Below, piece after piece: positions 17,773 through 35,268 of a stretch of 64,000 nt of DNA; the first letter of the stretch is position 1; each line of letters opens with the position of its first letter. The notes under the pieces were generated by a model, which was not told where the DNA came from, ran no database searches, and worked only from the letters and a program-made list of their open reading frames with translations. Both the position numbers and the translations under genes were made by a program. Source of the DNA: Deltaproteobacteria bacterium (lineage in GTDB: Bacteria > Myxococcota_A > Polyangia > Polyangiales > JAFGIB01); NCBI GenBank assembly GCA_016929805.1, contig JAFGIB010000456.1, forward strand, positions 7,573-71,572, written 5' to 3'.

Positions 17773-17957
17773 CATGGACACCGAGGATGTTTATTATTGA
17801 GCCGCGCTTGGATATGATACTAAGATAGAAGAACGACATCATAATCTATCTAAGTACGAGATAACACCCGATGTCATACATTGTATTATAACCATCGATA
17901 GACAGCAGTTGAAAACGAACCTTAGATTTAATATCGAAACCGCTTCGAGCATAATAG

Positions 17958-18602
17958 ATGAGAAGGTTATTTATTTTATCGACTATATCGGCTGTTGCCT
18001 TCGGCTTCGTCCCGGCGAGCTCGGTGAGCGCCGATGAAGGTGACGAAGCCTCACACGGGTACGCCGCGATGGCGGTGCAAAACCGCCTGTACACGCAGAC
18101 CGGTGAGCTGACGGCGTTCGTGGGTGTTTTACCGATGGATGCCTTTACCAAAGGGCTAACGCTCAGCGCGGCGTATACGCACCATTTTTCAGATCATTGG
18201 GCGTGGGAAGTCGTTCATTTCTTTTACTCCTTTCACATCGAGACCGATTTGCGCGACGATCTAGAAGCTTTCGATCTCGGTCCAATTCCATTTGAGGTTA
18301 TCGAACATCAAATGGTTACGAGCAACGCGGTTTTCAAGCCCGTGTATTGGAAGGGTTCGGTTTACAACGATTCGTTGATCTACGGAGAGCTGATGGTCTT
18401 GGCGGGCGCGGGATACGCGTGGTTCACGCGCTCAGAACGTATGGCCGTGGATCTCGGTATCGCAATGCGCGTTTATGTAAGCGGTTTGCTGTCCTTTCGC
18501 GTCGACGTACGGCACCATATATTCTTTGACGATGAGATCTTCAAACAGGCGAACTTAGACCATGAACTTTGGATTGGCCTCGGCACGTCGATTTCGTTTT
18601 AA
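17958..18602 (+). CDS. outer-membrane beta-barrel protein of the GltA/GltB/NfsA/NfsB type
   Basis: 214-aa ORF with signal peptide FILSTISAVAFGFVPASSVSA. VQNRLYTQTGELTAFVGVLPMDAFTKGLTLSAAYTHHF and the terminal ...GLGTSISF (C-terminal Phe) match my memory of the myxobacterial OMP family that contains GltA/B. Confidence 0.65.
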   Translation: MRRLFILSTISAVAFGFVPASSVSADEGDEASHGYAAMAVQNRLYTQTGELTAFVGVLPMDAFTKGLTLSAAYTHHFSDHWAWEVVHFFYSFHIETDLRDDLEAFDLGPIPFEVIEHQMVTSNAVFKPVYWKGSVYNDSLIYGELMVLAGAGYAWFTRSERMAVDLGIAMRVYVSGLLSFRVDVRHHIFFDDEIFKQANLDHELWIGLGTSISF

Positions 18603-20025: not shown

Positions 20026-23000
20026 TAAAAAGATATTGGGTTAACTTCGCGGGATTATTTCTCGTTTGCGCTGCCGGATGCGCGCAGCAGCAGGTGACCG
20101 TTCGCGACGCCGCATACGTGGAGATTTTAAGGGTAAAGATCTCGAAAGTGCGCAACGCCATCGAGGAAACGCGCGAAACCATAATCAGCGCGCGCAACGC
20201 GCGCTACCTGCCGGAGCTGTATCTGAGACTAGCCGAGTTGTTGAGCGAAGAGGCGCAATACCATCACCGGCTGGCCTATGAGCGTGAGCAAGGTGGCGGC
20301 AAAGCGCTGCACGTCCCGCAAGTAAGGCTGCTTAAGGAACAAGCGATAGGGGTTTATAAACAGCTTTTACACAAGTATCCAAGGACGGCATTGGCGGATC
20401 AAGTGCTGTTTAATATCGGGCAAGAGCAGCGCGAATTGGGTAATTTTACCGAAATGCAGCAATACCTGCAGCAAATTGTAAAGGAGTATCCCGATAGTCC
20501 CTTAAAGGGAGAGGCTCTGCTCGTGCTAGGCGATTATTACTTTGATAAGGGCGAGGTGGCGGAATCGCGTATTTACTATGAGCAAATTACCAAGGATAAG
20601 CCGAGTCGGGTAACGGGCTTGGCGTATTATAAATTGGCTTGGGTTTGGGTGAACCTAAATGAATGCGATAAGGCGATCGCGGCATTTGAAGGCGCGCTTC
20701 ATACGGCCCGCGCAGCGGATCAGAAAAAAAAGGCCGGCGCGAAAGGAAGCGCGACGAATGCCGGCCGCGAGCCGGATGACGGGCGATACGCCGAGGACGG
20801 CGCGCATACGGATAATGGCTCGAAAAAGGAAGTATCGAACCAGGGGATCGACGTCCGTCACGCGGCCTTGGTCGACCTCGCGTACTGTTATAGCCTAGAG
20901 CGAAAACCGGAAAACTCGGTGCGATATTTTCGCTCTTTGGCGCGCGATAGGACGACTTATGTCGAGGCGTTAGAAAAATTGGCCAGGCGGTATGGAGTTA
21001 TGAGCGAGGCCAAAGGATCGATTTTAGTGACGCGCGAACTGCTAAGACTCGGACCGATTAACGAAGAGCGCATCGATGACGTTAAGCAACTTCATGCCGC
21101 CTTGCGGGAGGCGAAGGACTATACGGCGGTGGGCAGCGACAGCCTGCTAATCGCGAGCGTCCTGGCCGCATACTGCTCGCGAGCTGATGTTTCGGATCGC
21201 GTTCGCGCTGAGATGAAGAAACAATTCGAGCTGTTTATACGCGATTTATTAACGCGCGCGCAAGAACGGCTCGAACGGCCGCAGCAGGAACGGCAGGTCG
21301 AGCGAGCGATGGAAATCGCGCGGGGCTATCGTGTTTATCTTCATGCTTTCCCGCAATCGAAAGCCTACCTCGACATGCTGCTCAATATAACCGACGTTCT
21401 CATTTTGGCGAAAGACCACTTGGAAGCTGGTCGACGCTTGCTTCAAGCGGCTTTCATGGTCGATCCGAGGGATGAGCGGCGGCGTGACATTTTGTACGAT
21501 GCGGTCGTGAGTCTTCAGAATTTTTTACACACCAAGCGAACCGATGTTAGTGATCTCGAATGGGTGCTCGCGCGTTCCGGTCTCAGACGGGCGGCGTCTG
21601 AATTGCTTCGCTATCCGCTACACGAGGACAAGATACGAACCGTTAAATTCGCGATCGCCATGACTTATTACGATGAAGGCAATCTGAGCGAGGCTGTTGA
21701 TCGGTTCACGGCTTTGGCCTATGAGTATCCCGGTAGTGAAGAGTCGGAGATATCGATTCGGCTCATACTTGACGCGTTCGACACGCTCTCGGATTTCGAC
21801 TCGCTGATGCGGGCCGCGCAACAGTTTTTAGCGAGCGACAGCCCCGCGGGCCAGGAACTACGCCGGCAGATATCCCCGCTGCTTGGCGCGGCTCAGCAGC
21901 GAAAACTCGACGAGGTATCGCTTGAGGCTGCGGGAGACGAAGGCGGCGGGCTCGACATGCTGGTCAGTTTTGCTCGCTATAATCAAGGCACGTCCCTGGG
22001 GGAGCGCGCGCTGCTCAACGCTTTCCTGGCGGCACGCGCGCAAGGCGATAGCGAGCAACTCTATAAGCTTGGAGAGGCGATTATACGTTTGTATCCCTCA
22101 AGTGAACAACTCCCCGGCTTGTTATCGACGATCGGGCAGATGGCCGTAGCCCGTTTCGAAATCGACCGGGCGATTGCGTTTTTGGCGCGCGCGGTTAAGA
22201 TCCGTCACCCGCAACAGGTAAGACTATTGGTTACTGCGGGGGAGCTCGAAGAGCAGCTCGGCAGCCGCGACCAGTCTAGACTTCGGTATCAGGAAGCGAT
22301 TCGCGCGACAGACAACAGGGGACGAGCGGAAGCGCTGGAACATCTGGCTAAACTTTTGGAACAAGAAGGCGACGCCAATAGGATGGTCGCCGAACTCGCT
22401 CCTTATAAGGAAGATAACAACCCCGAAGCTCTATCTCGTCTCGCCTTAGCACAATTAGCCCTGGGAAAGATCCAAGAGGCGGAGACCAATTTGCAGAACG
22501 TGTTGTCGGCTAGCGCTTCAGCCTCCTCGGAAGCGCTCGCGCGCGCGCACCATGGGGTAGCGGAGATTATGTTCGCCAATTCCCTAGGCTATGGGGAATT
22601 AAACAGCTTAGAAATGGTGGAGGAATACGTTGCGGTGGTTGAAGCGATTCAACAATCCTATCTCAACGCGGCGCGAGAGGGTAGCCTGACGTATACACCC
22701 GTGGCGTTAGGTCGATTGGCGTTCATGTCGAGGGCTGCGGCGCAAAGGTTTCGCACCGCGAACATACCCCAACAAGGGTTGAGCCCGGTACAGCATCAAC
22801 AAGTCGTGTCCGCGTTGCAAAGGCGAGCCGAGCAGCTCGAGCAGAGCGCGCAGGAAGCTCTCACGGCCTGCGCGAATCAGTCTTTCGCGCAGCGTTCTTT
22901 CGGCCCCGCCGCGCGATCTTGCTTGTCCGGCCGGGCCTGGGACAGGGTGTTGGCGGGGTTTGATAAATTCGCGCGACGAACCAGTAAGAGCGAGCCTGCT

Positions 23001-23366
23001 GGTCTAGAAGAACTACGCAAGCGCTTGTCGCGAAACGCGGATGATATCGAGGCCTTGCGGGAGCTTGGCTCTAGGTTTTTGAGAGCGGGAGATCCTCATT
23101 ACGCTCGTCTGGTCTTTGCCGCGGCAATTGAGCGCGGCGGCGGCGCGGTCGACGCGAATCTATTGGGCATCGCAGAAAATGACGTGCAGAACTATAGCGG
23201 CGCGCTTTCCGCATTCGCCCGCGCGGCTGAGGGCGGACTCGAAGCGGGACGGCAAAACTTGGCTACGCTCTTGCGTAAGCTCGGGCTTAATGCCGCTGCT
23301 GAAGATGCGATAAAACGCTATCCGGTCGGACAATCGGGTGGTCAACTTCTCTCCAAGGGTAGATAG
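20013..23366 (+). CDS. very large TPR lipoprotein, GltD(AgmU)/NfsD-like
   Basis: 1117-aa ORF with lipobox LFLVCAAGC. TPR-type repeats run throughout (e.g. ALADQVLFNIGQEQRELGNFTEMQQYLQQIVKEYPDSPLKGEALLVLGDYYF). The size and the position after a GltC-like gene match AgmU/NfsD. Confidence 0.65.
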   Translation: MSKIVKRYWVNFAGLFLVCAAGCAQQQVTVRDAAYVEILRVKISKVRNAIEETRETIISARNARYLPELYLRLAELLSEEAQYHHRLAYEREQGGGKALHVPQVRLLKEQAIGVYKQLLHKYPRTALADQVLFNIGQEQRELGNFTEMQQYLQQIVKEYPDSPLKGEALLVLGDYYFDKGEVAESRIYYEQITKDKPSRVTGLAYYKLAWVWVNLNECDKAIAAFEGALHTARAADQKKKAGAKGSATNAGREPDDGRYAEDGAHTDNGSKKEVSNQGIDVRHAALVDLAYCYSLERKPENSVRYFRSLARDRTTYVEALEKLARRYGVMSEAKGSILVTRELLRLGPINEERIDDVKQLHAALREAKDYTAVGSDSLLIASVLAAYCSRADVSDRVRAEMKKQFELFIRDLLTRAQERLERPQQERQVERAMEIARGYRVYLHAFPQSKAYLDMLLNITDVLILAKDHLEAGRRLLQAAFMVDPRDERRRDILYDAVVSLQNFLHTKRTDVSDLEWVLARSGLRRAASELLRYPLHEDKIRTVKFAIAMTYYDEGNLSEAVDRFTALAYEYPGSEESEISIRLILDAFDTLSDFDSLMRAAQQFLASDSPAGQELRRQISPLLGAAQQRKLDEVSLEAAGDEGGGLDMLVSFARYNQGTSLGERALLNAFLAARAQGDSEQLYKLGEAIIRLYPSSEQLPGLLSTIGQMAVARFEIDRAIAFLARAVKIRHPQQVRLLVTAGELEEQLGSRDQSRLRYQEAIRATDNRGRAEALEHLAKLLEQEGDANRMVAELAPYKEDNNPEALSRLALAQLALGKIQEAETNLQNVLSASASASSEALARAHHGVAEIMFANSLGYGELNSLEMVEEYVAVVEAIQQSYLNAAREGSLTYTPVALGRLAFMSRAAAQRFRTANIPQQGLSPVQHQQVVSALQRRAEQLEQSAQEALTACANQSFAQRSFGPAARSCLSGRAWDRVLAGFDKFARRTSKSEPAGLEELRKRLSRNADDIEALRELGSRFLRAGDPHYARLVFAAAIERGGGAVDANLLGIAENDVQNYSGALSAFARAAEGGLEAGRQNLATLLRKLGLNAAAEDAIKRYPVGQSGGQLLSKGR

Positions 23367-23369
23367 GCT

Positions 23370-24095
23370 ATGCGCCGTTTTTCGCGCATCTGGATGAAAA
23401 GAACGAGTTTGCTTGTACTAGCGACTTTTATCGCTTTCGGTTTTGCCTGCGGTTCCCAACAGGTCGAACCGCTCGATCCCAACGACTCGACTCTTCCGCA
23501 AGATACGAGGAGATGGATTGCGGCGGCCGAGGACGGTGTCGTCGCGGCCCGCGCGCGACGCGATGCGGCAAAAGAGCGACTAGAACGGGCCCGCGCGAGA
23601 CAGAAGCGTATGTTGGACGAAATCGACTTCGGCTCTAAAGGCGCTAAAGTCGTCGATTCCATGAACGCTCGCTTCGAGCGACACCAAGACTATTTGGAAG
23701 CGCAACTCGATCGCGCCGAGGCGCTTCTCGCACTGGCGGAAGCTAAGTACGAACTCGCGACCGCGGAGCAGGCTATTATACACGATATCGCGCGTTACGA
23801 TGTAGAAGAGATCAAACAGAAAGTCGAGCATGCGCGCCGACAGCTACAAGATGTCCGGAACCGTTTGCGTCAAACTCGGGAATCCCTCGACCGAACCACG
23901 ACGCGCTTTTGGCAGGTGTACGCCCAATATTTAAAGGAAGGAGGCGACGCGTTGCGTTTCTGGACCGGTAAAGGGCCGTCGATGTCAATCGCACGGTCCG
24001 CACCCAAAACCGGCACGGATGCTAAACCTCAAGAGCAATCGGTCAATCCCCGTTCCAATGTCAATCCAAAGGATTTGCCCTCGAACCCCTTTTAG
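23370..24095 (+). CDS. coiled-coil lipoprotein, last gene of the Glt-like operon
   Basis: 241-aa ORF with lipobox FIAFGFACGS and heptad-like charged helices (ARRDAAKERLERARARQKRMLDE...). It starts 3 nt after the previous stop. Confidence 0.55.
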   Translation: MRRFSRIWMKRTSLLVLATFIAFGFACGSQQVEPLDPNDSTLPQDTRRWIAAAEDGVVAARARRDAAKERLERARARQKRMLDEIDFGSKGAKVVDSMNARFERHQDYLEAQLDRAEALLALAEAKYELATAEQAIIHDIARYDVEEIKQKVEHARRQLQDVRNRLRQTRESLDRTTTRFWQVYAQYLKEGGDALRFWTGKGPSMSIARSAPKTGTDAKPQEQSVNPRSNVNPKDLPSNPF

Positions 24096-24170
24096 ATCGA
24101 TATCCGTCTCATCGGAACCAGAGTCCGCTATAGGATGTGAATAGTGAACCTGATGTCGGTTTCCTTTTTT

Positions 24171-24284
24171 TAACTTTGCAAAAGCCGTCGAACGGAAACG
24201 CTAAAAAAGCGAGCGCCGGCTTGGCTATCGCTATTTTTCGCTAGCGAAGAGCTTTGCGCTTACGGAGTTATAGCAATGGTAAGG
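24171..24284 (-). repeat. family-1 foldback repeat, short copy (both termini, internal deletion)
   Basis: taactttgcaaaagccgtcgaacggaaacgctaaaaaagc ... cgctagcgaagagctttgcgcttacggagttatagcaatggtaagg. Confidence 0.7.
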
Positions 24285-24683
24285 CTTAATAGGCCCGCCA
24301 ACGCGTACTCCCGGGCGACGAAGCATATTCGTTGTATATCGTTTATTCGCTTTATTATTCAGAATCAAGAGTAATGTCTACGCTGAGCAACTAACATAGG
24401 AGCGATGATCCACGGCGCGACCTACGGGCCGATCTTCTCTACGCGCTAAAAGATCTGACCACATGTGGTTACGAGCTTACAAAATCGTCGACACACTCAT
24501 TATCTTGCTGGTTGTCCTGGCGCGTAAGAGATCCGGGCCCTATGTGGTATATACCGCGGAGTAGGAACAACGAGTTGTTTTAATAGGCGACCTGTTATTC
24601 GTTTTTAAGAAAGCGCATACACGGAAGAATCGCATCTATAGAAAGATGCTGGAAAGACCTGCTCTGCGCGCTATCTATATTAT

Positions 24684-24872
24684 CCTTAACCTTGCTAAAA
24701 CTCCGCCGGCGTAAAGCGCTTCGCCGCGAAAAACAGCGCGAACTAAGGGTGTGCTCACTTTTTTTGGACTTCACTTAGGGTGCACTGAGCTCGGGTCCAA
24801 AAAGAGTTCCGCGCGCCCGTATTTCATCGCTTTTATCGCGTTTCCGCTCGACGTTTTTGGCAACGTCAGGGT
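24684..24872 (+). repeat. family-1 foldback repeat, full copy
   Basis: It is near-identical over ~190 bp to 45668..45859. Shared stretches are ccttaac.ttg..aaaac.ccg.cggcgtaaagcgcttcgc...ctaagggtgtgctcactttttttggac.tcacttagggtgcac...cgtttccgctcgacgttttt.gcaacgt.a.ggt. Confidence 0.9.
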
Positions 24873-25067
24873 TATTTATCCCTACTCAAAGGACGAAAAA
24901 GATCTTTTTTGAATTGCTCGTATGCTCCGAATTCTAATAGACTTAAAAAATGCGTAAAATGACGTTATCCTATTTTGGGAAATAAAAACTCTTTTAGTCA
25001 CTTCTCAAGGGTTTGCATAATTTCCAAATTGTCCTTATCAGGTGGGCAGCTGATGGGTTAAGCTTTT

Positions 25068-25829
25068 ATGGCGAGGCAGTTTTACAAGAAACGAGATCGC
25101 GTATTATTAGTAGACGACGAGCTTACAGTCGCTTGGAGTATTGGGCGCTATTTGACCCGAGCGGGTTTTTCGATTTCCGCCTGTGGCTCTGTATCGGAAG
25201 CTCTCGAACTACTCAATTCAAAATCCTATGACGTGGTTATAACGGATATTCATATGCCCGGAACGAGCGGGCTGGTGCTGATCGATTGGATTCGTGATAA
25301 TCGACCCAATATGCGAGTCGTAACCATAACGGGGTTCGGCTCGCCCGCTCTGCACAAGATCGCGATGGAAAAAGGCTCAATACTCTATTTGGATAAGCCC
25401 GTCGATGTCGAATATCTTGTAAATGTGTTAAGAAATGACGGCAACTGCAGTACCTTTTGGGGAAGCATCGGAGGAATTGATATTTTCGATTACATACAAT
25501 TAATATTGATGACGAGACAAAAATTTATCGTAGAAATCGCCTCTAAAGAAGGCGTCTACGGAAAAGTATTTTTGAATCAGGGGGACGTGGAACACGCCGT
25601 CTGCGACGATATTACGGGAGAAGAGGCTTTTTATCGGATACTCGGTTTTAAAGGCGGACGTTTTACCACCATCCCCTGGTTGGAGCCCGTAGAGAAAACC
25701 ATCCATCTATCCGGCGATTTTCTGATGATGGAAGCGGCTCGAAAGAAAGACGAGCGGGATATTAACACGCCTGCCGATGCAGGCCAATCGCGAGACGCGG
25801 ACGCGTTCGAGGAGAAGAAATATGTCTAG
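25068..25829 (+). CDS. response regulator: receiver domain fused to a PATAN/DUF4388 domain
   Basis: 253-aa ORF. The receiver region is ILLVDDE...DVVITDIHMPGTSG...TITGFG...YLDKP. The C-terminal half (GSIGGIDIFDYIQLILMTRQKFIVEIAS..GKVFLNQGDVEHAVCDDITGEEAFYRILGFKGGRFT) is DUF4388-like. Confidence 0.85.
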   Translation: MARQFYKKRDRVLLVDDELTVAWSIGRYLTRAGFSISACGSVSEALELLNSKSYDVVITDIHMPGTSGLVLIDWIRDNRPNMRVVTITGFGSPALHKIAMEKGSILYLDKPVDVEYLVNVLRNDGNCSTFWGSIGGIDIFDYIQLILMTRQKFIVEIASKEGVYGKVFLNQGDVEHAVCDDITGEEAFYRILGFKGGRFTTIPWLEPVEKTIHLSGDFLMMEAARKKDERDINTPADAGQSRDADAFEEKKYV

Positions 25830-25907
25830 GCGGATGCGTAGCTCGAGCTTTAAAACCGTATTTACGACGTCGGCATACGCGTCAAGATAGAGAAGACGGG
25901 GAGGGTT

Positions 25908-26399
25908 ATGAAGGCCTTAACCATGGAAACATCGAATATAAACACACAAAAGCTTTCGGATGTGCTGAGCGACTTTATAGCCGAGACCGATTCAATCGTC
26001 GCTCTTCTGTTGAATAAGGACGGTACCGCCATCGCCTCCGCGGGCAGCGAAAACGCGATCGATACGACGGCGATGGCCGCCTTGATAGCCGGAATGTTTT
26101 CCGCGACGCGAGAGGTGGCGAAGATGGTTGGAGAGCATCAGTTTTCCATCCTTCTTCAGCAGGGAGAAAAAAGGCACATCCATATTTCGCTCGTTAATGA
26201 GCACGTTATGATGGCGGTGGTATTTGAGGGATTTCATCGAATCGGACGTATCAGATATGAGTCGAGAAAAGCATGTAAAACGATCGGGGCGGCTCTGGCG
26301 ATTACCGACCAGACGAATAACAACCAAAAAGTTATCTCAATTCCCGAGTTCAAGGAGGTCGCTCTGAACCTTATAGATAGTATATTTACCAACAAATAG
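25908..26399 (+). CDS. mglB: MglB-type Roadblock/LC7 protein (GAP partner of MglA)
   Basis: 163-aa ORF with RBS ggggagg. ALLLNKDGTAIASAGSENAIDTTAMAALIAGMFSATREVAKMVGE...HIHISLVNEHVMMAVVF...GRIRYESRKA parallels M. xanthus MglB. It lies immediately upstream of mglA, as in Myxococcus. Confidence 0.85.
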   Translation: MKALTMETSNINTQKLSDVLSDFIAETDSIVALLLNKDGTAIASAGSENAIDTTAMAALIAGMFSATREVAKMVGEHQFSILLQQGEKRHIHISLVNEHVMMAVVFEGFHRIGRIRYESRKACKTIGAALAITDQTNNNQKVISIPEFKEVALNLIDSIFTNK

Positions 26400-26408
26400 G
26401 GCCGAGAG

Positions 26409-26990
26409 ATGCCGTTTATCAACTACGAAAATAGAGAGATCTCGTTTAAAATCGTATATTACGGGCCGGGCATGAGCGGCAAGACGAGTAATATCATTTT
26501 CGTGCATAAAACCATAGCTGAAGACAAAAGAGGAGAGTTGATATCCCTTAAGACGTCAGAAGAGAGGACGTTGTTTTTCGATTTCTTTCCTCTAGAGCTC
26601 GGTCATATCGCCACGTTTTCGGTACGCTTTAATATGTATACGCTGCCCGGGCAAATATATTATGAGGCCAGCCGTCGTTTGATTTTGGACGGCGCCGACG
26701 GCGTGGTTTTTGTAGCTGACTCGCAGCGTTCGCGATACGAAAGAAACATTCTTCATTATCAACTGTTAGAAAAGAATCTAATGCTGTATAAAATAAATCC
26801 AAAGGCGTTTCCCATAGTTCTGCAGTACAATAAGAGGGACTGCGATACGCCGATCGAGATAGGTACGATCGAAAAGCAATTAGGGCTCGAAGACGTACCC
26901 GTTTTCGAGGCGGTTGCAACCAGGGGCGACGGGGTACTCGAGACGATACGAGAATTATCACGAAGGGTTATCAGCCAATTTGAGGTATGA
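26409..26990 (+). CDS. mglA: MglA-family Ras-like small GTPase
   Basis: 193-aa ORF. MPFINYENREISFKIVYYGPGMSGKTSN (P-loop) and RTLFFDFFPLELG are present. YTLPGQ shows the MglA-specific Thr in place of the Asp of DxxGQ. VVFVADSQ and LQYNKRD (NKxD) are also present. It is near-collinear with M. xanthus MglA as I recall it. Confidence 0.92.
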   Translation: MPFINYENREISFKIVYYGPGMSGKTSNIIFVHKTIAEDKRGELISLKTSEERTLFFDFFPLELGHIATFSVRFNMYTLPGQIYYEASRRLILDGADGVVFVADSQRSRYERNILHYQLLEKNLMLYKINPKAFPIVLQYNKRDCDTPIEIGTIEKQLGLEDVPVFEAVATRGDGVLETIRELSRRVISQFEV

Positions 26991-27043
26991 GAGTGAGGAT
27001 ATTTTTTACTTTGCTTAAATATATTTGACAGAGAGAGTATAAC

Positions 27044-27748
27044 ATGACGCTGCGCGGTTCATTGTCGGATCTAGGATCAGTACAACTCGTGCAATTCCCG
27101 TATAACGGAAGGAAAACGGGCGAGCTATTTATATCTAACCGCAACGCGGAAGCCCGTTTCTATTACCACGAGGGAAACCTCATTCACGCCGCGACTGGAA
27201 AGAAAACCGGAATAGATGTGTTGATCGATGTACTCGGCTGGACAGATGGAGAATTTGAATTTCGGACGGGCGTACGGCCTGAACGTCGGTCGATCGAACA
27301 AGATCTACACCAGGTTTTAATGATGGCTTTGGTAGCCAAAGACGAGAGAGAGCGGAGAAATAGCCAAATGCACGAAGAGAAATCACCGGAATTGATCAAA
27401 AAACGCATACAAAAGCTGCTAGACGAATTCGTAACATCCACGACGTACGTCCAATATAGCTATATTCAGGATTCCAACACGAATGTTATCGCTATATCCC
27501 GAGCGCTTCAATCACGCGATAACCTGAAAAGAATGCAGGATACGATATCTTCTTTTGTTCGATCGTACCCCGGTGAGCTCGGTCGAGCGTTTTTCGAGAG
27601 CGAAGAAGGCATGATTACAATTATGAGGCTAGTTGGGAAACGTTATCTTATTATGTTTACGAATCCGGAGGCAAGTCTTGGGATGATCACGGTGAAGGCG
27701 GGCAAGCTCGCCGCGTCTTTAGATGAAACACTGAGCCCAAAAGAGTGA
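27044..27748 (+). CDS. PATAN/DUF4388 domain fused to a Roadblock/LC7-like domain
   Basis: 234-aa ORF. The N-terminus is LRGSLSDLGSVQLVQFPYNGRKTGELFISN...GNLIHAATGKKTGIDVLIDVLGWTDGEFEF (DUF4388). The C-terminus is ...GRAFFESEEGMITIMRLVGKRYLIMFTNPEASLGMITVKAGKL (Roadblock-like). Confidence 0.75.
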   Translation: MTLRGSLSDLGSVQLVQFPYNGRKTGELFISNRNAEARFYYHEGNLIHAATGKKTGIDVLIDVLGWTDGEFEFRTGVRPERRSIEQDLHQVLMMALVAKDERERRNSQMHEEKSPELIKKRIQKLLDEFVTSTTYVQYSYIQDSNTNVIAISRALQSRDNLKRMQDTISSFVRSYPGELGRAFFESEEGMITIMRLVGKRYLIMFTNPEASLGMITVKAGKLAASLDETLSPKE

Positions 27749-27755
27749 ACGCGAG

Positions 27756-28934
27756 ATGGCCGACGAGAAAAAAAACGCGAATGACACGCCCCTTCCTCTA
27801 TTTTTGATATCGTGTATTGCGGAGGGGATTATTGACGAAAAGACGGCGTATCGTATCGAGACGGTTCGCGAAGAAAGCATCGCGTCGACTTTCGGTATGC
27901 TTGAGGCAATTCCTGACCCCAGCTTACGATTTAGTAGCTTTTATCCGTGTCGCGCCAACGCTATGGCGATTCAAATTGCAAAAAAAATTGCAGAAGAAAG
28001 AACCGCACCGGCAGAATACAATCCGATTTATTTCTACGGGGATACGGGCTTGGGGAAGACCCACCTTCTTTCGGCTATTGCTAACGAACTGGGCGATAGG
28101 GAAGTCTTGTTTCTAAACGCGGCGTATCTCGATAACGAATGTATCGAAGCGATTGCACCGCACGAAAATACATCATTCCGCAATTGGCTACGGTCATTTT
28201 ACGCGTTGGTGATAGACGATATTCAGCAGTGTCCGAGGCAGAAGGAGATCGAAAACGCCGTTGCGTTCAGCATAGATGAGATGGCTTTTCTTAATCGGCC
28301 TGTGGTTGTCGGCTCGGATAGGCCCTTGGAGGAGTTGAGCGAATTAAGCGACTTTTTGCTTTCGCGATTATCACGGGGAGTAAAAGCAAAGCTCGAGATA
28401 GGGGATGAGGCGGAACGATTTGCAATCGTAAAAGGTATGGTGGGAGAAAATACGGTACCCAATACCGTCCTCCACTATATCGCGGCTCAGATCGACGACA
28501 GCGTGCGTCGATTAAAATCAACGGTGACCCAATTGATAGCTATACATAACGAATTGGCCCGCCCGATAACGGTGAATCTCGCACAAACCGTTATCTATGG
28601 TGAGCCGGACAGACAACATAGGACTATAGCGAGTTTACATCCCGGTATGTCGAGCGAGATCGATCTCGATTCATCGAAACCATCTCTTGAGTCGGACGTC
28701 GCCGAGCTGTTTAAAAAGATGCTCGTAGACGCGGAAACAGAAGAAGAGCAGGCGTTAGCGCTTCAGATAGCGATCAGTGAGAGAGTGCGACAACTGAAAC
28801 GCGATAAAAACGCCGAGAAAGAGGCTTTAGAGAATTTAGAACACGCGCTGGAGATGCTTCGTGAGGGTAGCTTAGAAGAAGCGATTCATTACATAAATCG
28901 CGCGCGAGAAAAGAAAGACGAGCCCTTTATTTAG
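27756..28934 (+). CDS. DnaA-domain-III-like AAA+ ATPase with no DnaA domain IV (Hda-like architecture, acidic coiled-coil tail)
   Basis: 392-aa ORF. YNPIYFYGDTGLGKTHLLSAIANE (Walker A), ALVIDDIQQC (Walker B), NRPVVVGSDRPLEEL, LLSRLSRGVKAKLEIGDEAERFAIV and DSVRRLKSTVTQLIAIHNELARPITVNLA are collinear with DnaA domain III. No helix-turn-helix DnaA-box-binding C-terminus is present. Confidence 0.8.
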   Translation: MADEKKNANDTPLPLFLISCIAEGIIDEKTAYRIETVREESIASTFGMLEAIPDPSLRFSSFYPCRANAMAIQIAKKIAEERTAPAEYNPIYFYGDTGLGKTHLLSAIANELGDREVLFLNAAYLDNECIEAIAPHENTSFRNWLRSFYALVIDDIQQCPRQKEIENAVAFSIDEMAFLNRPVVVGSDRPLEELSELSDFLLSRLSRGVKAKLEIGDEAERFAIVKGMVGENTVPNTVLHYIAAQIDDSVRRLKSTVTQLIAIHNELARPITVNLAQTVIYGEPDRQHRTIASLHPGMSSEIDLDSSKPSLESDVAELFKKMLVDAETEEEQALALQIAISERVRQLKRDKNAEKEALENLEHALEMLREGSLEEAIHYINRAREKKDEPFI

Positions 28935-28977
28935 CATCGAAGATCGGGGATGAGGAGATAAAGAGAGGAGCACGATT

Positions 28978-29334
28978 ATGACACAACTGAGCGTTTTACT
29001 TGAAGAGCTCGTCGAAATAAGCGGAATAAGAACAGCGCTCGTGGTAGGACGTGATGGGCTGGTCGTGGATAGCGCCACAAAAAAGTATCGGGATGATGAT
29101 GATGCCGTCGGCGCGATAATATCTACGGGAATCTGCTCAATAGAGTCGACGGGAAAAGAACTGAACCTCGGTAAATCGACTCAAGGACTCCTAGAATATT
29201 CCGACGGCGTGGTGCTCATCAACGCGTTGGCCGAAGATTCCTTACTCGTGATTGTGGCTGATAAAAAAGTAAATCTCGGAAACATCCGGTATCAAGCTAG
29301 AAAGCGTATGACTTCGCTACAAAAAGCTATTTAG
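28978..29334 (+). CDS. stand-alone Roadblock/LC7 protein
   Basis: 118-aa ORF with a strong RBS (agaggag). The sequence LLEELVEISGIRTALVVGRDGLVVDSA...GAIISTGICSIESTGKELNLGKSTQGLLEYSDGVVLINALAEDSLLVIVADKKVNLGNIRY is Roadblock-type. Confidence 0.8.
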   Translation: MTQLSVLLEELVEISGIRTALVVGRDGLVVDSATKKYRDDDDAVGAIISTGICSIESTGKELNLGKSTQGLLEYSDGVVLINALAEDSLLVIVADKKVNLGNIRYQARKRMTSLQKAI

Positions 29335-29359
29335 GGCTCGCGTAATAACAACTCCACTT

Positions 29360-29944
29360 TTAGCCGATCGCAGGCAAAACCTCTGCAGTCGTTCTCATAA
29401 TGGCTTCTTTTAACCGATGTTCTAACGGCGTACGCGTGACGACGCCTAGAATAAAATGCTCTTCGTCGCTTTCAGCGACCTGGAAACCGTAAATATGTTG
29501 TTTGTCGTAATCGAGATTTACACAAAGAAGCCTATTTTCTTTGTCCGAAATACGGTTTAGCTGCTCAAGCGCATAACTCAGCTCGGCGCCCACGCCTTCA
29601 GAATGTTCATCGGGGAGAGCGCCACAATTCGATATAACAAACCCTTGAGAATCGACTACGAAAGTCGATTCCGCGTTGATCGCTTCGTGGCACCATCGCA
29701 CAAAGGAGTCAATGCTACTAAAACCGCTCTCCGGCCTTTTAGGAATCGCTTGAAGCTTATCTTCCTCCGTCACCTGCGGCTCACTCGGCGGCTTTTCTTG
29801 AGTCGGTCGAAAGATAAAAGGAGGATATACCGGAGTCGCATTTTGCGGCTCTAAGGTGCTTTTTACCTTGGTCTTTTTACAGAGTTTGTGACTCAGATTG
29901 CTAGCGAGGTGAATGTCAAACGAGCTCTCTTTGCGGCCTTTCAT
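29360..29944 (-). CDS. protein with a Pro-rich N-terminal linker and a Roadblock/LC7-like C-terminal domain
   Basis: 194-aa ORF overlapping the parA-like stop by 29 nt. The C-terminus is EAINAESTFVVDSQGFVISNCGALPDEHSEGVGAELSYALEQLNRI...LLCVNLDYDKQHIYGFQVA...FILGVVT. Confidence 0.6.
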   Translation of the reverse strand: MKGRKESSFDIHLASNLSHKLCKKTKVKSTLEPQNATPVYPPFIFRPTQEKPPSEPQVTEEDKLQAIPKRPESGFSSIDSFVRWCHEAINAESTFVVDSQGFVISNCGALPDEHSEGVGAELSYALEQLNRISDKENRLLCVNLDYDKQHIYGFQVAESDEEHFILGVVTRTPLEHRLKEAIMRTTAEVLPAIG

Positions 29945-30731
29945 CGGTTTCTCCTATACATCCGCCTAACAAGGCTATTCTATCTTCGATTTCCGTAGCC
30001 AGCGCTTCAAATCGTCGGGCTTCCGGTGGAATACGGCCGCCCAAAAATGCGATGGGCAAACCGGCTTCGCTCGCTGCGGAGAAGACCTGAGCGCGGGGGA
30101 TTACCGTTTCAAAAACCGTCGCAAATCCGGACCACACCGTACTCATCACGTTAAATGACGCCTCCTCACCGAGTTGAACCATCGTCGCCAGTATTCCCAG
30201 CAGCTCTAGCGATTCGTTTTCGTTGGTCTTCACGTGGTCGATCACGCGCAACGTCTGACCGATAGACCGAAGGGCTAATGGCTCGGCTTGAAGAGGAAGA
30301 ATGACGAAATCGGCTATTTTCAGCGCCGTTCTCGTTACCAATCCCAATCCTGAGGGCGTATCGAAAAAAATACAGTCGAAGTCGGCATCGACCGCTTCAA
30401 TTATCTTAGCTATCGAATCCACGGATTGAAGAGCCATCTCATATTGGACAATATCCACAGGATCTAGCTTTCCGCGCGGTAAAATCGATAACGTCGAGAG
30501 CTTCGTTGCAATAATCGCTGTCTCCAAAGGTGCCCGGCCCATCAAGTAATCGGCCAAACCTACCCATTCGGTATCGCCCTTTGCCAACGAATGACCGATA
30601 GCTCCTTGCGGATCGAGATCAACCAATAAGACGGAACGCCCTCGCTCGGCGAATACGACTGCGAGATTAAGCGCGCTCGTCGTCTTTCCGGTACCGCCTT
30701 TTGTACTGATTATGGCAATTTTATTCTTCAC
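29916..30731 (-). CDS. ParA/MinD-family deviant-Walker-A ATPase
   Basis: 271-aa ORF with a GTG start after aggggag. Motifs are KIAIISTKGGTGKTTSALNLAV, LLVDLDPQG and CIFFDTPSGLG. Confidence 0.9.
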   Translation of the reverse strand: MKNKIAIISTKGGTGKTTSALNLAVVFAERGRSVLLVDLDPQGAIGHSLAKGDTEWVGLADYLMGRAPLETAIIATKLSTLSILPRGKLDPVDIVQYEMALQSVDSIAKIIEAVDADFDCIFFDTPSGLGLVTRTALKIADFVILPLQAEPLALRSIGQTLRVIDHVKTNENESLELLGILATMVQLGEEASFNVMSTVWSGFATVFETVIPRAQVFSAASEAGLPIAFLGGRIPPEARRFEALATEIEDRIALLGGCIGETDERPQRELV

Positions 30732-31051
30732 GATATCTCCCCTTTCATACGACGATTAATCGGAGAAGCAGATGTCCTTCCGGCAGAGGAAAAGGAGATG
30801 GAGACGAAAGCTCCGCGGTCCCTTTTGGTCTCTATAAGGAATGTGTCTACATATAGAGCGCCTTGATCAGCGATCGACTCCAATAGCTCAACCTTTCCAA
30901 TGACCACCGCGAGTCCATATCATAACAACCATCGCTTGTAAATCCTGCTACAACTCGCCGCATCGATTCGAACGGCGAGCCGATTTCATTGTACTACCTC
31001 CTATTCTTAGATGGGTTTTGTAGACAGCCTATTGCCCATCTATTGAATAGA

Positions 31052-31450
31052 CTAGCTTATTTCTTTAAGCGAGCCGAGTAACGACTGGAAATGTTTTTTT
31101 ACACACATCCGAACCATGCCGAGTTTCACTTGTTTGGGTACGCCTATAGCGATCGCCATATTGGTTTCCCTATTAGGCGATATTACGAAGAACGCGGATT
31201 TGGTCGTCTCCAGAATAAATTCTTTGAATCCCCCCACTAAAGTTCGCACCGTATCATTACGCGCGTGCTTCTGAGCATGAACGATCAAGTCGAGCATGTT
31301 TCCAAATGCAATTCCGATCGACTCACCGTCGATATGGTGTTGATCAGATACATTGCCGATCGGCAATCCGGTTTCTAAGTCGAAACACGAGACAAAATAG
31401 CAATTGCCGATATCGCGATTGATTTCTTGTAAAACGTTTATCAATGACAT
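31052..31450 (-). CDS. divergent Roadblock/LC7-like protein
   Basis: 132-aa ORF. The size and alpha-beta pattern fit the fold (CYFVSCFDLETGLPIGNVSD...ESIGIAFGNMLDLI...GGFKEFILETTKSAFFVISPNRETNMAIAIGVPKQVKLGMVR). Confidence 0.55.
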   Translation of the reverse strand: MSLINVLQEINRDIGNCYFVSCFDLETGLPIGNVSDQHHIDGESIGIAFGNMLDLIVHAQKHARNDTVRTLVGGFKEFILETTKSAFFVISPNRETNMAIAIGVPKQVKLGMVRMCVKKHFQSLLGSLKEIS

Positions 31451-31470
31451 GGTAACAACTCCCCGTAATA

Positions 31471-31851
31471 TCAGCCGATCAAGGGCTTTAGTTTAGTCAA
31501 GTACTTATTCGACATGACTCGCAGCATGCCGAGGTTGCCTGTTGCGTTCACACCCGCCATCAACGCGACCTGTAGCTGGGCATCTACGACGATGAAGAAC
31601 GACGCGCCCTCAACCTCGAGTATCATAGAATGCAAACCGCCGCAGATTTCCTCGGGCAATATTTTGAGAAAGTTGTTTATTCGGTCCCAGATATTGGCAT
31701 GGATGGCTGACATCGCATCGATATTGGTATCGGGAACATCGGAGTCTACAGCAAGCATCAACCCATCACCGATACTAAAGACAGCCGTGGCGACCGCCCC
31801 GGGTAATTGCCGCTTAAACTCGGTGATCAAAGCCTGAATTGGATTGGCCAC
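31471..31851 (-). CDS. divergent Roadblock/LC7-like protein
   Basis: 126-aa ORF. The sequence is GAVATAVFSIGDGLMLAVDSDVPDTNIDAMSAIHANIW...LHSMILEVEGASFFIVVDAQLQVALMAGVNATGNLGMLRV. It is the first gene of the minus-strand run. Confidence 0.6.
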   Translation of the reverse strand: MANPIQALITEFKRQLPGAVATAVFSIGDGLMLAVDSDVPDTNIDAMSAIHANIWDRINNFLKILPEEICGGLHSMILEVEGASFFIVVDAQLQVALMAGVNATGNLGMLRVMSNKYLTKLKPLIG

Positions 31852-32263
31852 TTACTCATCCCTCCTTTCCACGAAACGAAAAAAAACACTTTGACGAAGA
31901 TAGACGAAGTATCTCGTTATCTTCGACCGCTTGCTCAGCAATACAGTTTGCAAGAGTCATTACAGCATAATCGAACGCAGATAGCAATGACGTTAGAATC
32001 GAGAACGGCCGCATCACCATCCATTGTAGGGAGCGGTCGATAAATGTTTATTCGCTCATGTAGATACCACTTATCCCGATTGAAACCGACAGTATAACAG
32101 CTTGAAATACAAGGTTCGCCAGGCGGCGACATCGCTGCGACATCAGACTTGAGCCCGTCTCATAAATACCTCCATTTGCATTTGAGGCGGGACGAGCCCA
32201 TCTGCGGCGTCGCTCCTTTGCGAAATAGTGCTGTTATTCCATCGTCGTCGCTTATCTCGTTTT

Positions 32264-32444
32264 AGAACTCTTCGCAAAATAAACGATACGAGACCGGGCG
32301 CGTCGGCGGGATGCGGTCGCGAGCGCGCCCGGAGCAAAACCGCGGCAATAGCAGCGCTATTTCGAAGATTTTTCCGAGGACGAAAGCCGCTAACGCACCC
32401 GCCCACGCGCTCGCAACAGGGACGTCTATTTTGCGGAGAGTCCT
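32264..32444 (+). repeat. family-2 foldback repeat
   Basis: 181 bp. The termini are agaactcttcgcaaaataaacg and cgtctattttgcggagagtcct (inverted). The conserved core is aaaccgcggcaatagcagcgctatttcgaaga. Confidence 0.75.
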
Positions 32445-32578
32445 TAGACGGTTGCGCTCCGAAATACTCGGTCGGGCCTCGTTAAACACGCTACAAGACC
32501 GGACGGAAAGGCAAATGCGCTATAACTCGAGAGAGACGGGTGCTTTGGGGCTACCCAATTTAGACGACATCGGACGTG

Positions 32579-33892
32579 TCAGTCGTAGTACTCGTAGCCG
32601 AGATGGGTGATCAGATCTTCACCCACGAGCCATCGAAGGGTATTCTTCAATTTCATGGACTGAATAAATAGATCGTTTTCGGGATAGAGACCGGGAGCCG
32701 TCGTCGGACTCTTGAAGTAAAACGAGAGCCATTCCTGGACCCCGCTGAATCCGGCGCGTTGCGCTAAGTCCATAAAGAGAACGAGATCCAATACGATAGG
32801 TGCGGCTAAAATCGAATCCCGGCATAAAAAGTTGACCTTAATTTGCATTGGGTAGCCAAGCCAACCAAAGATATCGATGTTATCCCAGCCTTCCTTTTGA
32901 TCTCCACGGGGCGGGTAGTATTCGATTCTAACCTTATGGTACATCTCTCCGTAGAGATTGCGATTGAGCTCGGGCTGTAGAATCGTTTCGAGCACTCCGA
33001 GCTTCGAGACTTCTTTGGCTTTAAAGCTTTCGGGGTCGTCGAGCACTTCTCCGTCGCGATTGCCTAGAATGTTACTGGAAAACCATCCGTTGATACCAAT
33101 CATTCGCGCTTTTATTCCAGGCGCTAGGATCGTCTTCATCAAGGTTTGGCCGGTCTTAAAATCCTTGCCGGAAAGCGGGACGCGGTGTTTTTTCGCGAGC
33201 TCCAGAAGAGCGGGTATTTCCGCGGTCAGATTCGGCGCGCCGTTGGCGTATGGGACGCCTTCTTTGATCAGCGCATAAGCGTATACCATAGAAGGGCTGA
33301 TCGCAGGATGGCTGCTTGAAAGGCCAGATTCGAATTTGCTTAGAGACGAATGCACTTCCGAGGGCGCTTGATGAATCTCGGTTGACCCGCACCAAACGGC
33401 GACGCATCGATCAACAGCGTTTTCGCGGATGAAATCGCGGATGTCTTGGCGCACGGCTTCGGCCAGCTCCATTTTATTCTTACTTTGTTTGACATTTTCG
33501 CCTCGCAACCGCTTGACGTACTCGGGGAAGAAGACCGCGGACATCGGTTTGATCGCCTCAAGCTCGGGCTTGATGGCATCGAGGTGATTTTTTGTGAGAA
33601 CATCAGCGTTGCACGCGGCGTCGTACGCGTTGTCGCGGAAAAGATCCCATCCGCCGAACGCCAGGTCTTCTAGATTCGCAAGTTCGATGAAATCACGTAT
33701 CAAGGGCGCCCGGTTTTCCGTTCGTTTCCCCAGGCGTATATGGCCGAGTTGGGTCAACGAGCCAATCGGAAGCGCAACTCCCTTTTTCGCGAGTAGGCAA
33801 CCAGCGATGAAAGTTGTTCCGACCGCTCCCATTCCGGGTAATAAAACGCCTAGTTTACCAGTAGCGGATCGAATCTCTTTTGGTTTTTTCAT
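32579..33892 (-). CDS. ino1: myo-inositol-1-phosphate (inositol-3-phosphate) synthase
   Basis: 437-aa ORF. The N-terminus is GVLLPGMGAVGTTFIAG (Rossmann). MVYAYALIKEGVPYANGAPNL, SGKDFKTGQTLMKTILAP and NILGNRDGEVL match archaeal/bacterial MIPS. Confidence 0.9.
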   Translation of the reverse strand: MKKPKEIRSATGKLGVLLPGMGAVGTTFIAGCLLAKKGVALPIGSLTQLGHIRLGKRTENRAPLIRDFIELANLEDLAFGGWDLFRDNAYDAACNADVLTKNHLDAIKPELEAIKPMSAVFFPEYVKRLRGENVKQSKNKMELAEAVRQDIRDFIRENAVDRCVAVWCGSTEIHQAPSEVHSSLSKFESGLSSSHPAISPSMVYAYALIKEGVPYANGAPNLTAEIPALLELAKKHRVPLSGKDFKTGQTLMKTILAPGIKARMIGINGWFSSNILGNRDGEVLDDPESFKAKEVSKLGVLETILQPELNRNLYGEMYHKVRIEYYPPRGDQKEGWDNIDIFGWLGYPMQIKVNFLCRDSILAAPIVLDLVLFMDLAQRAGFSGVQEWLSFYFKSPTTAPGLYPENDLFIQSMKLKNTLRWLVGEDLITHLGYEYYD

Positions 33893-34135
33893 TGCACGAA
33901 ATCTCGAAATAGTGGTTGACGGTAAGCGGAGAAAACTATCGGGAAGCGCTGTATTCGAACCATCAGCTCCGAAGCCTCCGTAGGTAGCACCCTATCGCAT
34001 CAAATGGTCGATCCCGTTGTGTACATAATTTACACTCCGTATCTTTCCTGAAAGTGCGAATGGCCCTGTTGATCAGTTAGCAAAGTCGCTACGCAAGCTC
34101 TATGCCGCCAGCCGAAAGGCTGTTCGTATGTAAGC

Positions 34136-34304
34136 GTTCAGGGGTCATACAAGTCGGCGGCCAATTCGCCTGTAAAACCGAGCGCGCCCGAAGGGCCGGC
34201 GAGTATGGTACTTGCTGTACCTGACGAGCCGGTGCGAGGACGAAAGCCGGTTTTACGGGATGAATTGGCCGCCGTCGTAGCCAAACAGTAGTACCCCCCT
34301 GAAC
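34136..34304. other. 169-bp rod-like imperfect hairpin (structured sRNA candidate or a third foldback element)
   Basis: Nested complementary arms: cgttcagggg/cccccctgaacg, ggcggccaattc/gaattggccgcc, gcctgtaaaaccg/cggttttacggga, ccggc/gccgg and ggtac/gtacc, around the apical loop ttgct. Confidence 0.5.
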
Positions 34305-34497
34305 GGTTACCTTCGTATTGGCTTAGATATTGCATTTTGCGCGAAAGCGTGGTTGCTTTCGAAGCAAATCAGATAAAGAAAGGGTCTGGCAGGCGAAAAA
34401 ACAAACTGATACCGAATGCTATCCGTGCTGTACATTCACACTGTGGTGGCATTGCAACACTCACTGTATGAAAAGGGCCACAACTTAGGTAATAGAG

Positions 34498-35268
34498 ATG
34501 AATCGAGCGATTATATTGGCTGCAGGACGTGGAGAAAGGCTTGTCAATGGTTATAGCTTTCCGAAACCTCTAAAGGAGGTGAACGGACTTCCACTGATCG
34601 TTCGCGTACTTCGAAATCTCGAGTTTTCCGCGGTGCGAGAGGTTGCTATCGTCGTTGGATACCTTGGCGACGTATTGATTTCCGGCATAAAACGCTTTTC
34701 GTTCGATTTGGAGATCACCTTTTTTCATAACGACGAGTGGCATAAACCCAATGGGACCTCTCTATTAAAAGCGAAATCGTTCGTCAGCGGACCAACCTAT
34801 TTAATGATGAGCGACCACGTTTGGTCGACTAGTCTAATCGAGCCGATTCGGCGCTATCCGTTGGCTCACGATGAAGCGGTTCTTGGCGTTGATTTCAATA
34901 TCACGCGCTGTTTTGATTTGGAAGACGCTACCAAGGTTGAGATCGATGGCGATCGGGTAGTTAGAATAGGCAAACAGCTAGAAACTTATCAAGCGCTTGA
35001 TACGGGAGTATTTAAGATAACGCCGGCGGTGATTGAGGCGCTGGAGCGGGTGGAAGGACCGAAGGGCTGTTCGCTTTCAGACGGTATGGCAGCGCTCGCG
35101 GCAACCGGTCGTATGCGAATCGTTGACGTAAAAGACGCGATGTGGATCGACGTGGATACGCCGGACGCTCATGCCTACGCGGAGATGCTTTTAGCGAATT
35201 ACGGCCAAGAACTGAGACCGATGCCTCAAGTTCAGCCTTCCGTCATCGAATCGCCGGCTCTAAACTAA
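34498..35268 (+). CDS. nucleotidyltransferase resembling the CTP:inositol-1-phosphate cytidylyltransferase (IPCT) domain
   Basis: 256-aa ORF. Motifs are MNRAIILAAGRGERL, KPNGTSLLKAK, LMMSDHV, DATKVEIDGDRVVRIGKQL..YQALDTGVFKI and MWIDVDTPDA. The pattern matches my memory of the IPCT half of archaeal IPCT/DIPPS. It is divergent from the MIPS gene. Confidence 0.65.
   Translation: MNRAIILAAGRGERLVNGYSFPKPLKEVNGLPLIVRVLRNLEFSAVREVAIVVGYLGDVLISGIKRFSFDLEITFFHNDEWHKPNGTSLLKAKSFVSGPTYLMMSDHVWSTSLIEPIRRYPLAHDEAVLGVDFNITRCFDLEDATKVEIDGDRVVRIGKQLETYQALDTGVFKITPAVIEALERVEGPKGCSLSDGMAALAATGRMRIVDVKDAMWIDVDTPDAHAYAEMLLANYGQELRPMPQVQPSVIESPALN

Follow-up and report, generated by a model that had tools for sequence, protein, structure and literature searches.

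We analysed a 64,000-nucleotide (nt) stretch of the metagenome-assembled genome of a Deltaproteobacteria bacterium (contig JAFGIB010000456.1, positions 7,573 to 71,572 of the forward strand; hereafter the window, with all coordinates counted from its first letter) and concentrated on a minus-strand run of four genes that encodes two small proteins of 126 and 132 amino acids (aa), P126 and P132, a ParA/MinD-family ATPase (ParA) and a 194-aa protein, P194. The gene order, the gap of 320 base pairs (bp) within the run and the KGGTGKT motif of ParA, all of which had been recorded in an initial annotation made from the sequence alone, were confirmed. The run is composed of the following elements:

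31471-31851, minus strand: P126 (126 aa), a divergent Roadblock protein that leads a conserved tandem pair
31052-31450, minus strand: P132 (132 aa), a divergent Roadblock protein, second of the pair, 20 bp downstream of P126
30732-31051: non-coding gap of 320 bp between P132 and parA
29916-30731, minus strand: parA, encoding a 271-aa ParA/MinD-family ATPase with the motif KGGTGKT (Pfam AAA_31 and CbiA)
29916-29944, minus strand: overlap of 29 nt between the 3' end of parA and the 5' end of the P194 gene, read in two frames
29360-29944, minus strand: the P194 gene (194 aa), with its ATG inside the 3' end of parA

Conservation of the parA-P194 pair and its operon contexts

The ATG of P194 is located 29 nt before the parA stop codon and is preceded by an AGGAGA Shine-Dalgarno sequence, which gives a length to the overlap of the two genes that the initial annotation had pointed out. 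The complete four-gene arrangement is kept in a relative (locus L013) at ~70-75% protein identity. A pattern scan of metagenome contigs, based on an alignment of the P194 family, yielded 80 further loci, and an orthologous ParA was found directly upstream of the P194 homologue, with overlapping reading frames, in 77/77 loci with enough upstream DNA (eight loci without upstream room were left out of this count). The overlap measures 29 nt in 39 of the loci where the start could be placed and 32 or 35 nt in 9 more, which we take to be the result of an alternative upstream start codon chosen by the script. Next to the ParA orthologues, no ParB, MinE or other known ParA partner was seen in the contexts examined; a conventional partner at this position is what the initial annotation had named as speaking against its own proposal, and the neighbour is in each case a P194 homologue. 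Furthermore, of the 57 loci whose upstream sequence is long enough, 41 have a gene with a Roadblock domain immediately upstream of parA, and 12 more have one two genes further up. The arrangement P126-P132-parA-P194 is thus more than a product of chance, being kept in L013, with the ParA-P194 pair present in every related locus examined, and the adjacency of ParA and Roadblock genes that the initial annotation had suggested following up by comparative genomics is real and conserved.

The loci fall into three types of operon:

Type I (Desulfuromonadales; Pcar_2474-2479): FIST, PATAN-Roadblock, a V4R-like protein of 170 aa, a related protein of 192 aa, often a second protein of ~300 aa, ParA, P194
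Type II: a divergent PATAN and Roadblock pair, PATAN-Roadblock, ParA, P194; the P194 homologues have the lowest identity to that of the window (26-31%)
Type III (window and L013): P126, P132, ParA, P194, convergent with an mglB-mglA-PATAN-AAA+ operon

The proteins that accompany ParA-P194 most constantly are PATAN and PATAN-Roadblock proteins, and the second protein of type I (~300 aa) has a C-terminal Roadblock domain behind a weakly PATAN-like N-terminus. Among the loci compared, an MglA-like gene was present in type III only. In the type I and II loci, the fetched flanks (up to 10 kb on each side) revealed no MglA-like GTPase, leaving ParA as the sole P-loop NTPase of operons that hold two or three Roadblock domains. 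The initial annotation was right about the minus-strand run and missed its wider context, namely the convergent mglB-mglA-PATAN operon of the window and the operons with PATAN-Roadblock, V4R and FIST genes elsewhere. The small proteins that precede ParA-P194 in type I (L014, 8732-9842; L016, 7896-9011) comprise the 170-aa protein, with a weak V4R match, and the 192-aa protein, which has no Pfam match and a Cys/Gly-rich core similar to that of its 170-aa V4R-like neighbour; together with the FIST protein they may provide small-molecule sensory input. The 192-aa protein (X192) was also considered as a hidden GTPase and rejected, as it has no P-loop and its 170-aa partner is V4R-like.

The ATPase and its candidate partner P194

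Residues 9-18 of ParA form a deviant Walker A motif (STKGGTGKTT) that carries the signature lysine of the pattern KGGxxK[ST], and this motif is conserved in 181 members of the family. In Pfam, ParA is matched by AAA_31 (E 2e-33) and CbiA (E 1.5e-19), and its whole length can be aligned with Soj/ParA structures (8ray_B, E 2.7e-28), with Thermus thermophilus Soj (1wcv) covering residues 4-254 (E 1.1e-24). Orthologues of 271 aa, found in Geobacteraceae, Desulfuromonadales, Syntrophotalea carbinolica and Bradymonadales, make up more than 120 clusters at 56-76% identity, and the subfamily keeps ~60% identity across Desulfuromonadales, Bradymonadales and the Myxococcota-like lineage of the window. 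The ATPase motifs are intact, IPR213 is conserved in the family, and the high conservation extends to the C-terminal tail. A scan of reference genomes with ParA as the sole query returned only Bacillus FlhG-type genes.

P194 can be divided into three parts:

29870-29944, minus strand: residues 1-25, conserved short N-terminal motif (SSFDIHLASNLSHKL), proposed from its sequence to be a ParA-docking or ParA-activating peptide
29723-29869, minus strand: residues 26-74, proline-rich linker of variable length, predicted to be disordered
29360-29722, minus strand: residues 75-194 and the stop codon, conserved C-terminal domain (C-domain), probably Roadblock-like

The N-terminal motif, [NS]-S-x-[DN]-h-x-x-A-x-x-L-[LS]-x-x-L, is common to all three operon types at an overall identity of 25-40%, and takes the form SSxD[VIL]x[IVL]AxxLSxxL in the window, the type II loci and Bradymonadales and NSYDLxQAQQLLxxL in the type I loci; a second small motif, Y[LV]R[FL][SA], is found at about residue 40. 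The initial annotation had described the N-terminal half of P194 as proline-rich, and 10 of the 49 linker residues are indeed proline. In a single-sequence model, residues 1-65 have a predicted local distance difference test score (pLDDT) below 50. Members of the family range from 157 to 296 aa in length, and among the aligned homologues the differences fall in the linker. The C-domain is acidic (net charge -11) and features the invariant residues F95, D98, G101, F102, G108, G119 and A120.

A layout of conserved N-terminal motif, variable proline-rich linker and C-terminal domain is, as far as sequence can tell, the usual one for a ParA partner. Since this layout fits and the pairing with ParA is absolute, we propose a partner role for P194, which makes it a strong candidate for a ParA adaptor or regulator. 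As in ParA-ParB, McdA-McdB, PomZ-PomX/Y, ParC-ParP and MinD-MinE, a deviant Walker A ATPase is followed immediately downstream by a translationally coupled partner gene, and the candidate, like the known partners, joins a conserved N-terminal segment to a C-terminal interaction domain through a flexible linker. Unlike them, the P194 family is uncharacterised (it is publicly annotated as 'hypothetical', as with Pcar_2479 in S. carbinolica), ends in a Roadblock-like domain and contains no ParB-, MinE- or PomXY-like domain.

The resemblance to Soj raises the alternative that ParA-P194 is a DNA-partition cassette in which P194, as a novel centromere-binding protein, would take the role of ParB or ParG. 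ParA is closest to Soj-type ParAs of chromosomes and plasmids, a small partner gene downstream is the classical layout of a par operon, and the cluster lies in a low-GC stretch: the GC fraction is 0.465-0.484 over 24000-32000, which holds the whole MglA/MglB-PATAN-ParA cluster, versus 0.52-0.58 on both sides, a difference that may reflect horizontal acquisition of the polarity cluster. However, neither P194 nor its homologues gave a Pfam or NCBIfam match to ParB or to a DNA-binding domain, and the C-domain is acidic and Roadblock-like. Repeat arrays of the iteron or centromere kind are missing around the operon, ParA does not conserve the position that corresponds to the DNA-binding arginine of Soj, and the operons that house the pair are chromosomal ones for signalling, with FIST, V4R and PATAN genes. 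As the locus presents neither the adjacent ParB-, ParG- or omega-type protein nor the parS sites or iterons of a ParABS system, we consider partition a very improbable function of the pair.

Roadblock relationships of P126, P132 and P194

The initial annotation described all three small proteins of the run as Roadblock-like. In Pfam, P126 and P132 have no match at E<=1, and P194 reaches Robl_LC7 (PF03259) with 17.8 bits (E 0.0029), below the cut-off of 23 bits, so that none of the three attains the Roadblock/LC7 gathering score, which is passed by RB118 and RB163, two Roadblock proteins of the convergent operon. P126 and P132 are paralogues (23% identical, E ~2e-7). We compared family profiles with a reference Roadblock profile composed of canonical Roadblock domains from the window and related loci. 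In this profile-profile comparison the P132/P126 family aligned over 114 columns with a probability of 94.8% (E 5e-8), and the C-domain of P194 (66 sequences) gave 82-89.5% in hhalign (E 2e-6 to 1e-5, the best alignment covering 87 columns), whereas eight control profiles (PATAN, two V4R-like families, FIST, ParA, MglA, the DnaA-like protein of the convergent operon and the other query family) remained at <=0.9% for both queries. Homology to Roadblock domains is thus detected for both families at the profile level. An AF2 model of P132, based on an alignment of 4 sequences, reached a pLDDT of 73.7 and a predicted template modelling score (pTM) of 0.67, with one central strand modelled as a helix. 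Its best Foldseek match in the PDB was Myxococcus xanthus MglB (6izw_C, E 6.8e-4, TM ~0.6), and the PDB matches listed were all of Roadblock type (MglB, LAMTOR, Asgard Roadblock, the C-terminal domains of Rag/Gtr, and Ego3). As judged by profiles and model, P126 and P132 are divergent Roadblock proteins that Pfam misses, in agreement with the initial annotation.

For P194, the single-sequence model was poor (pLDDT 46). At this confidence, residues 78-192 follow the order helix-strand-strand-helix-strand-strand-strand-helix, which is that of a Roadblock domain, and the PDB matches were weak and included Roadblock and profilin-like folds, with a Thorarchaeota Roadblock protein on top (7f8m_B, E 9.7e-3). 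A PDB search with the sequence profile of the P194 family returned nothing meaningful. The C-domain is probably Roadblock-like, mainly on the grounds of profile-profile similarity; this part of the initial annotation gains from the hhalign result and loses from the Pfam score below cut-off and the poor model, and its evidence is weaker than that for P126 and P132. A word-based homologue search retrieved 3 proteins for P132 and only itself for P194, the scarcity of relatives being due to both families evolving too fast for a search of this kind.

P126 and P132 have a history of their own. Orthologues of P126 (39-61% identity) precede orthologues of P132 in five loci (L013, L100, L101, L102 and L105), the copy in L100 being fused to PATAN, and the pair occurs without ParA in L102 and L105, both of which have long flanks. 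An exhaustive profile search of 1.84 billion representative proteins recovered just 32 relatives of the P132 family, of which 7 are C-terminal domains of PATAN proteins and 3 reach Robl_LC7. At L102 (7482-9203), L103 and L104, a P126/P132-like pair is followed by a gene for a Ppx/GppA phosphatase in the context of Por_Secre_tail proteins; no ParA or GTPase was found near the pair in these three contexts, which indicates that the pair has an independent existence. P126/P132 is therefore an independent tandem module, separated from parA by a gap that is not conserved (320 bp in the window versus 446 bp in L013), and its two proteins probably form a heterodimer. In the lineage of the window, the pair would have been brought beside the ParA-P194 module. 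The initial annotation had treated the three Roadblock genes as one set, which holds for P194, locked as it is to ParA, and fails for P126 and P132, which also occur without it.

On the plus strand, the operon that converges on P194 encodes additional Roadblock and PATAN proteins as well as a small GTPase:

25068-25829, plus strand: receiver and PATAN protein, 253 aa (Response_reg E 7e-23; DUF4388 E 5.8e-13)
25908-26399, plus strand: MglB-type Roadblock protein RB163, 163 aa (Robl_LC7 E 5.2e-11; PDB MglB 6h5b_B E 5.2e-15)
26409-26990, plus strand: MglA-family small GTPase, 193 aa (PDB 3t12_A, MglA, E 3.3e-57)
27044-27748, plus strand: PATAN (DUF4388) protein, 234 aa (DUF4388 E 4.4e-17), with a faintly Roadblock-like C-terminal half
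27756-28934, plus strand: DnaA-like AAA+ ATPase, 392 aa (Bac_DnaA ATPase domain E 1.2e-29)
28978-29334, plus strand: canonical Roadblock/LC7 protein RB118, 118 aa (Robl_LC7 E 4.8e-11), convergent with P194

The GTPase is an MglA by sequence, with the P-loop GPGMSGKT and YTLPGQ (T-x-P-G-Q in place of DxxGQ), and has the motifs T-L-P-G-Q and ERTLFFDF in common with T. thermophilus MglA. RB163 combines a match to the MglB family (NCBIfam MglB, E 2.1e-17, below cut-off) with pairing to mglA. The same NCBIfam family did not match P126, P132 or P194, which by sequence are not orthologues of MglB or MglC and are not paired with mglA in the manner of MglB, the homologues of P194 pairing with ParA. RB118 is 33% identical to the Roadblock domain of PATAN-Roadblock proteins from Desulfuromonadales and is absent from L013. 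The DnaA-like ATPase was not to be expected in an MglA operon; its Bac_DnaA ATPase domain alone was detected, followed by a coiled-coil-like C-terminal region, and it is found in L013 at 36% identity.

This neighbourhood suggests another function for the Roadblock proteins of the run. P126, P132, P194 and RB118 could all regulate MglA, as subunits or co-factors of a GTPase-activating protein (GAP) or guanine nucleotide exchange factor (GEF) of the MglB/MglC/RomY kind, with ParA being separate or acting only upstream or downstream of MglA. Such a role would agree with the known function of Roadblock proteins as platforms for small GTPases (PMC3747258, PMC9481161), with the clear homologues of MglB and MglA that lie, in the order mglB-mglA, ~3 kb from ParA-P194 in the window and also occur in L013, with the existence of the P126/P132 pair outside ParA loci and with the public annotation of PATAN-Roadblock proteins as 'GTPase-activating protein, putative'. 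However, P194 was never found apart from ParA, to which it is tied by the 29-nt overlap, and has no significant similarity to MglB, and the type I and II operons combine ParA-P194 and Roadblock proteins with no MglA-like gene within the fetched flanks. For P194, regulation of MglA is contradicted by the absolute pairing with ParA and the lack of mglA in types I and II; for P126 and P132 it is plausible. As an account of all four proteins, we regard it as unlikely.

A putative positioning system for Roadblock/PATAN complexes

ATPases of the ParA/MinD family dimerise as ATP sandwiches, are stimulated by a partner that typically touches them with its N-terminal region, and bind DNA or membrane through C-terminal features (PMC11407121). 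In order to rationalise the strict pairing on the molecular level, we favour, at somewhat better than an even chance, a reading in which parA and P194 form a conserved, translationally coupled two-gene module, an ATPase and its dedicated partner, whose ATP turnover positions a Roadblock/PATAN complex. The protein-protein contacts, the ATPase stimulation and the cargo that we infer are the following. The N-terminal motif of P194 would dock on the ATP-bound ParA dimer and stimulate hydrolysis in the manner of the N-termini of other ParA partners, the flexible proline-rich linker would give reach, and the Roadblock-like C-domain would pair with neighbouring Roadblock domains, i.e., those of the PATAN-Roadblock proteins and, in the window, perhaps RB118, P126/P132 or MglB. 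The Roadblock/PATAN signalling complex would be the cargo or effector, and ATP turnover by ParA would either localise it or switch its localisation. In the Myxococcota-like genome of the window the complex would also hold MglA-MglB, so that cell polarity or surface motility would be the likely output. The same output appears most plausible by analogy, as MglA and MglB set polarity in Myxococcus and, in Synechocystis, polarity is controlled by PATAN response regulators that bind the motor of type IV pili (bioRxiv 10.1101/2021.06.11.447907).

Alternatively, the Roadblock domains might act on the ParA ATPase directly, in a GAP-like or exchange-like fashion as MglB does on MglA, which would extend Roadblock regulation to SIMIBI-class ATPases and leave the N-terminal motif of P194 to serve another purpose. 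The status of ParA as the sole P-loop NTPase in type I and II operons with two or three Roadblock domains would agree with this, as would an invariant Gly/acid-rich loop in the C-domain of P194 (GFEGTGAEL) that resembles a functional surface, but we found no precedent for such an activity, and the conserved N-terminal motif with its linker corresponds to the standard layout of a partner. The N-terminal motif is the more conventional candidate for ATPase regulation than the Roadblock domain, and direct action of the latter strikes us as distinctly unlikely.

Several observations weigh against the positioning of a Roadblock/PATAN complex by ParA-P194. The arginine that the aligned Soj-type structures have in common, which we take to be the DNA-binding residue (R189 in Bacillus subtilis Soj), is replaced by Gly188 in the ParA of the window and varies between H, N, D, R and Q across the family. 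The C-terminal 60 aa of ParA have a net charge of -3 and end in DERPQRELV, this acidic tail being conserved, and inspection of the C-terminus for an amphipathic helix that could target the membrane revealed none. Unlike the known ParA/MinD systems, the ATPase therefore has neither a conserved DNA-binding arginine position nor a membrane-targeting helix, and a classical nucleoid or membrane gradient is not assured. Most known ParA activators use Lys or Arg, whereas basic residues are not conserved in the N-terminal motif of P194 and many type I proteins begin with MNEQSANSYDL; residues 1-9 of P194, moreover, are under constraint from the parA frame that overlaps them. In addition, the structure model of P194 is of low confidence, and at one Bradymonadales locus (L018) ParA-P194 stands alone, without Roadblock or PATAN neighbours.

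In a wider form of the proposal, Roadblock proteins would constitute a dedicated set of regulators or adaptors for a ParA/MinD-type ATPase, and ParA-P194 would be a widespread, undescribed system that positions a PATAN/Roadblock polarity complex, joined in Myxococcota by MglA/MglB, and couples the ATP cycle of ParA to the G-protein switch; we put this forward tentatively and consider it possible, if rather doubtful. The initial annotation knew of no described system with this pairing of ParA and Roadblock proteins, and in the searchable literature we saw nothing published that connects PATAN proteins with a ParA ATPase. Full-text searches for Roadblock, PATAN, DUF4388 and MglB with ParA/MinD and for Geobacter locus tags returned no description of a ParA-Roadblock or ParA-PATAN system, and those around the locus tag GSU2641 only unrelated papers on the ext cluster. 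One of the close described systems is the polarity module of M. xanthus MglA-MglB with MglC, RomR/RomX and RomY, which the window resembles in its mglB-mglA genes, its extra Roadblock paralogues and the Glt-like genes adjacent to them. In that module, the divergent Roadblock paralogue MglC is a known partner of MglB (PMC4719450, PMC7949163). Unlike the window, the described module has no ParA-type ATPase, and most ParA-P194 loci have no MglA. The PATAN regulators PatA and PixG/PixE and the 'PATAN domain GTPase-activating protein' of Geobacter/Pelobacter are a further point of comparison, PATAN proteins being neighbours of ParA-P194 as well.

In bacteria, it is mainly ParA/MinD ATPases that put chromosomes, plasmids, carboxysomes, flagella, chemoreceptor arrays and division sites in their places, and each newly identified partner family has, to our knowledge, revealed a new cargo. 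Here, such an ATPase comes with a new partner family and in a new signalling context, that of PATAN/Roadblock operons and, in the window, MglA/MglB. We know of Roadblock-domain proteins only as platforms or regulators of small Ras-like GTPases; if the proposed contacts hold, the range of NTPases served by these domains would be wider, and a link would exist between ParA-type ATPases and Ras-like GTPase polarity switches, two great systems of spatial organisation in bacteria. Culturable hosts of ParA-P194 include S. carbinolica (Pcar_2474-2479) and, judging from matches in metagenome-assembled genomes of Geobacteraceae, probably Geobacter.

Of the surrounding sequence, the 320-bp gap between P132 and parA gave no match in an Rfam search, and promoter and terminator matches within it were at chance level only. 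An open reading frame of 59 aa at 30728-30907 on the minus strand, annotated in one public assembly, lies in this gap and overlaps the start of parA; it was rejected as a gene because it has no conserved counterpart in the L013 relative, and is probably none. Upstream of P126, a non-coding stretch of 727 bp (31852-32578), likewise without an Rfam match, contains a 28-nt inverted repeat (32258-32285 and 32423-32450) whose arms are 82% complementary and 137 nt apart. The cluster is flanked at 32579-35268 by genes for a myo-inositol-1-phosphate synthase and a MobA-like nucleotidyltransferase, which may belong to a pathway for an inositol derivative unrelated to ParA-P194. On the other side, the plus-strand genes upstream of the polarity cluster (15492-24095) encode MtsC, with a MYXO-CTERM sorting signal above the NCBIfam cut-off, an OMP_myx_plus beta-barrel protein, a GltC-like tetratricopeptide repeat (TPR) protein and a TPR protein of 1117 aa; they point to a Myxococcota-type organism and look like Glt/Nfs-like envelope machinery in a neighbourhood resembling that of a gliding machinery.

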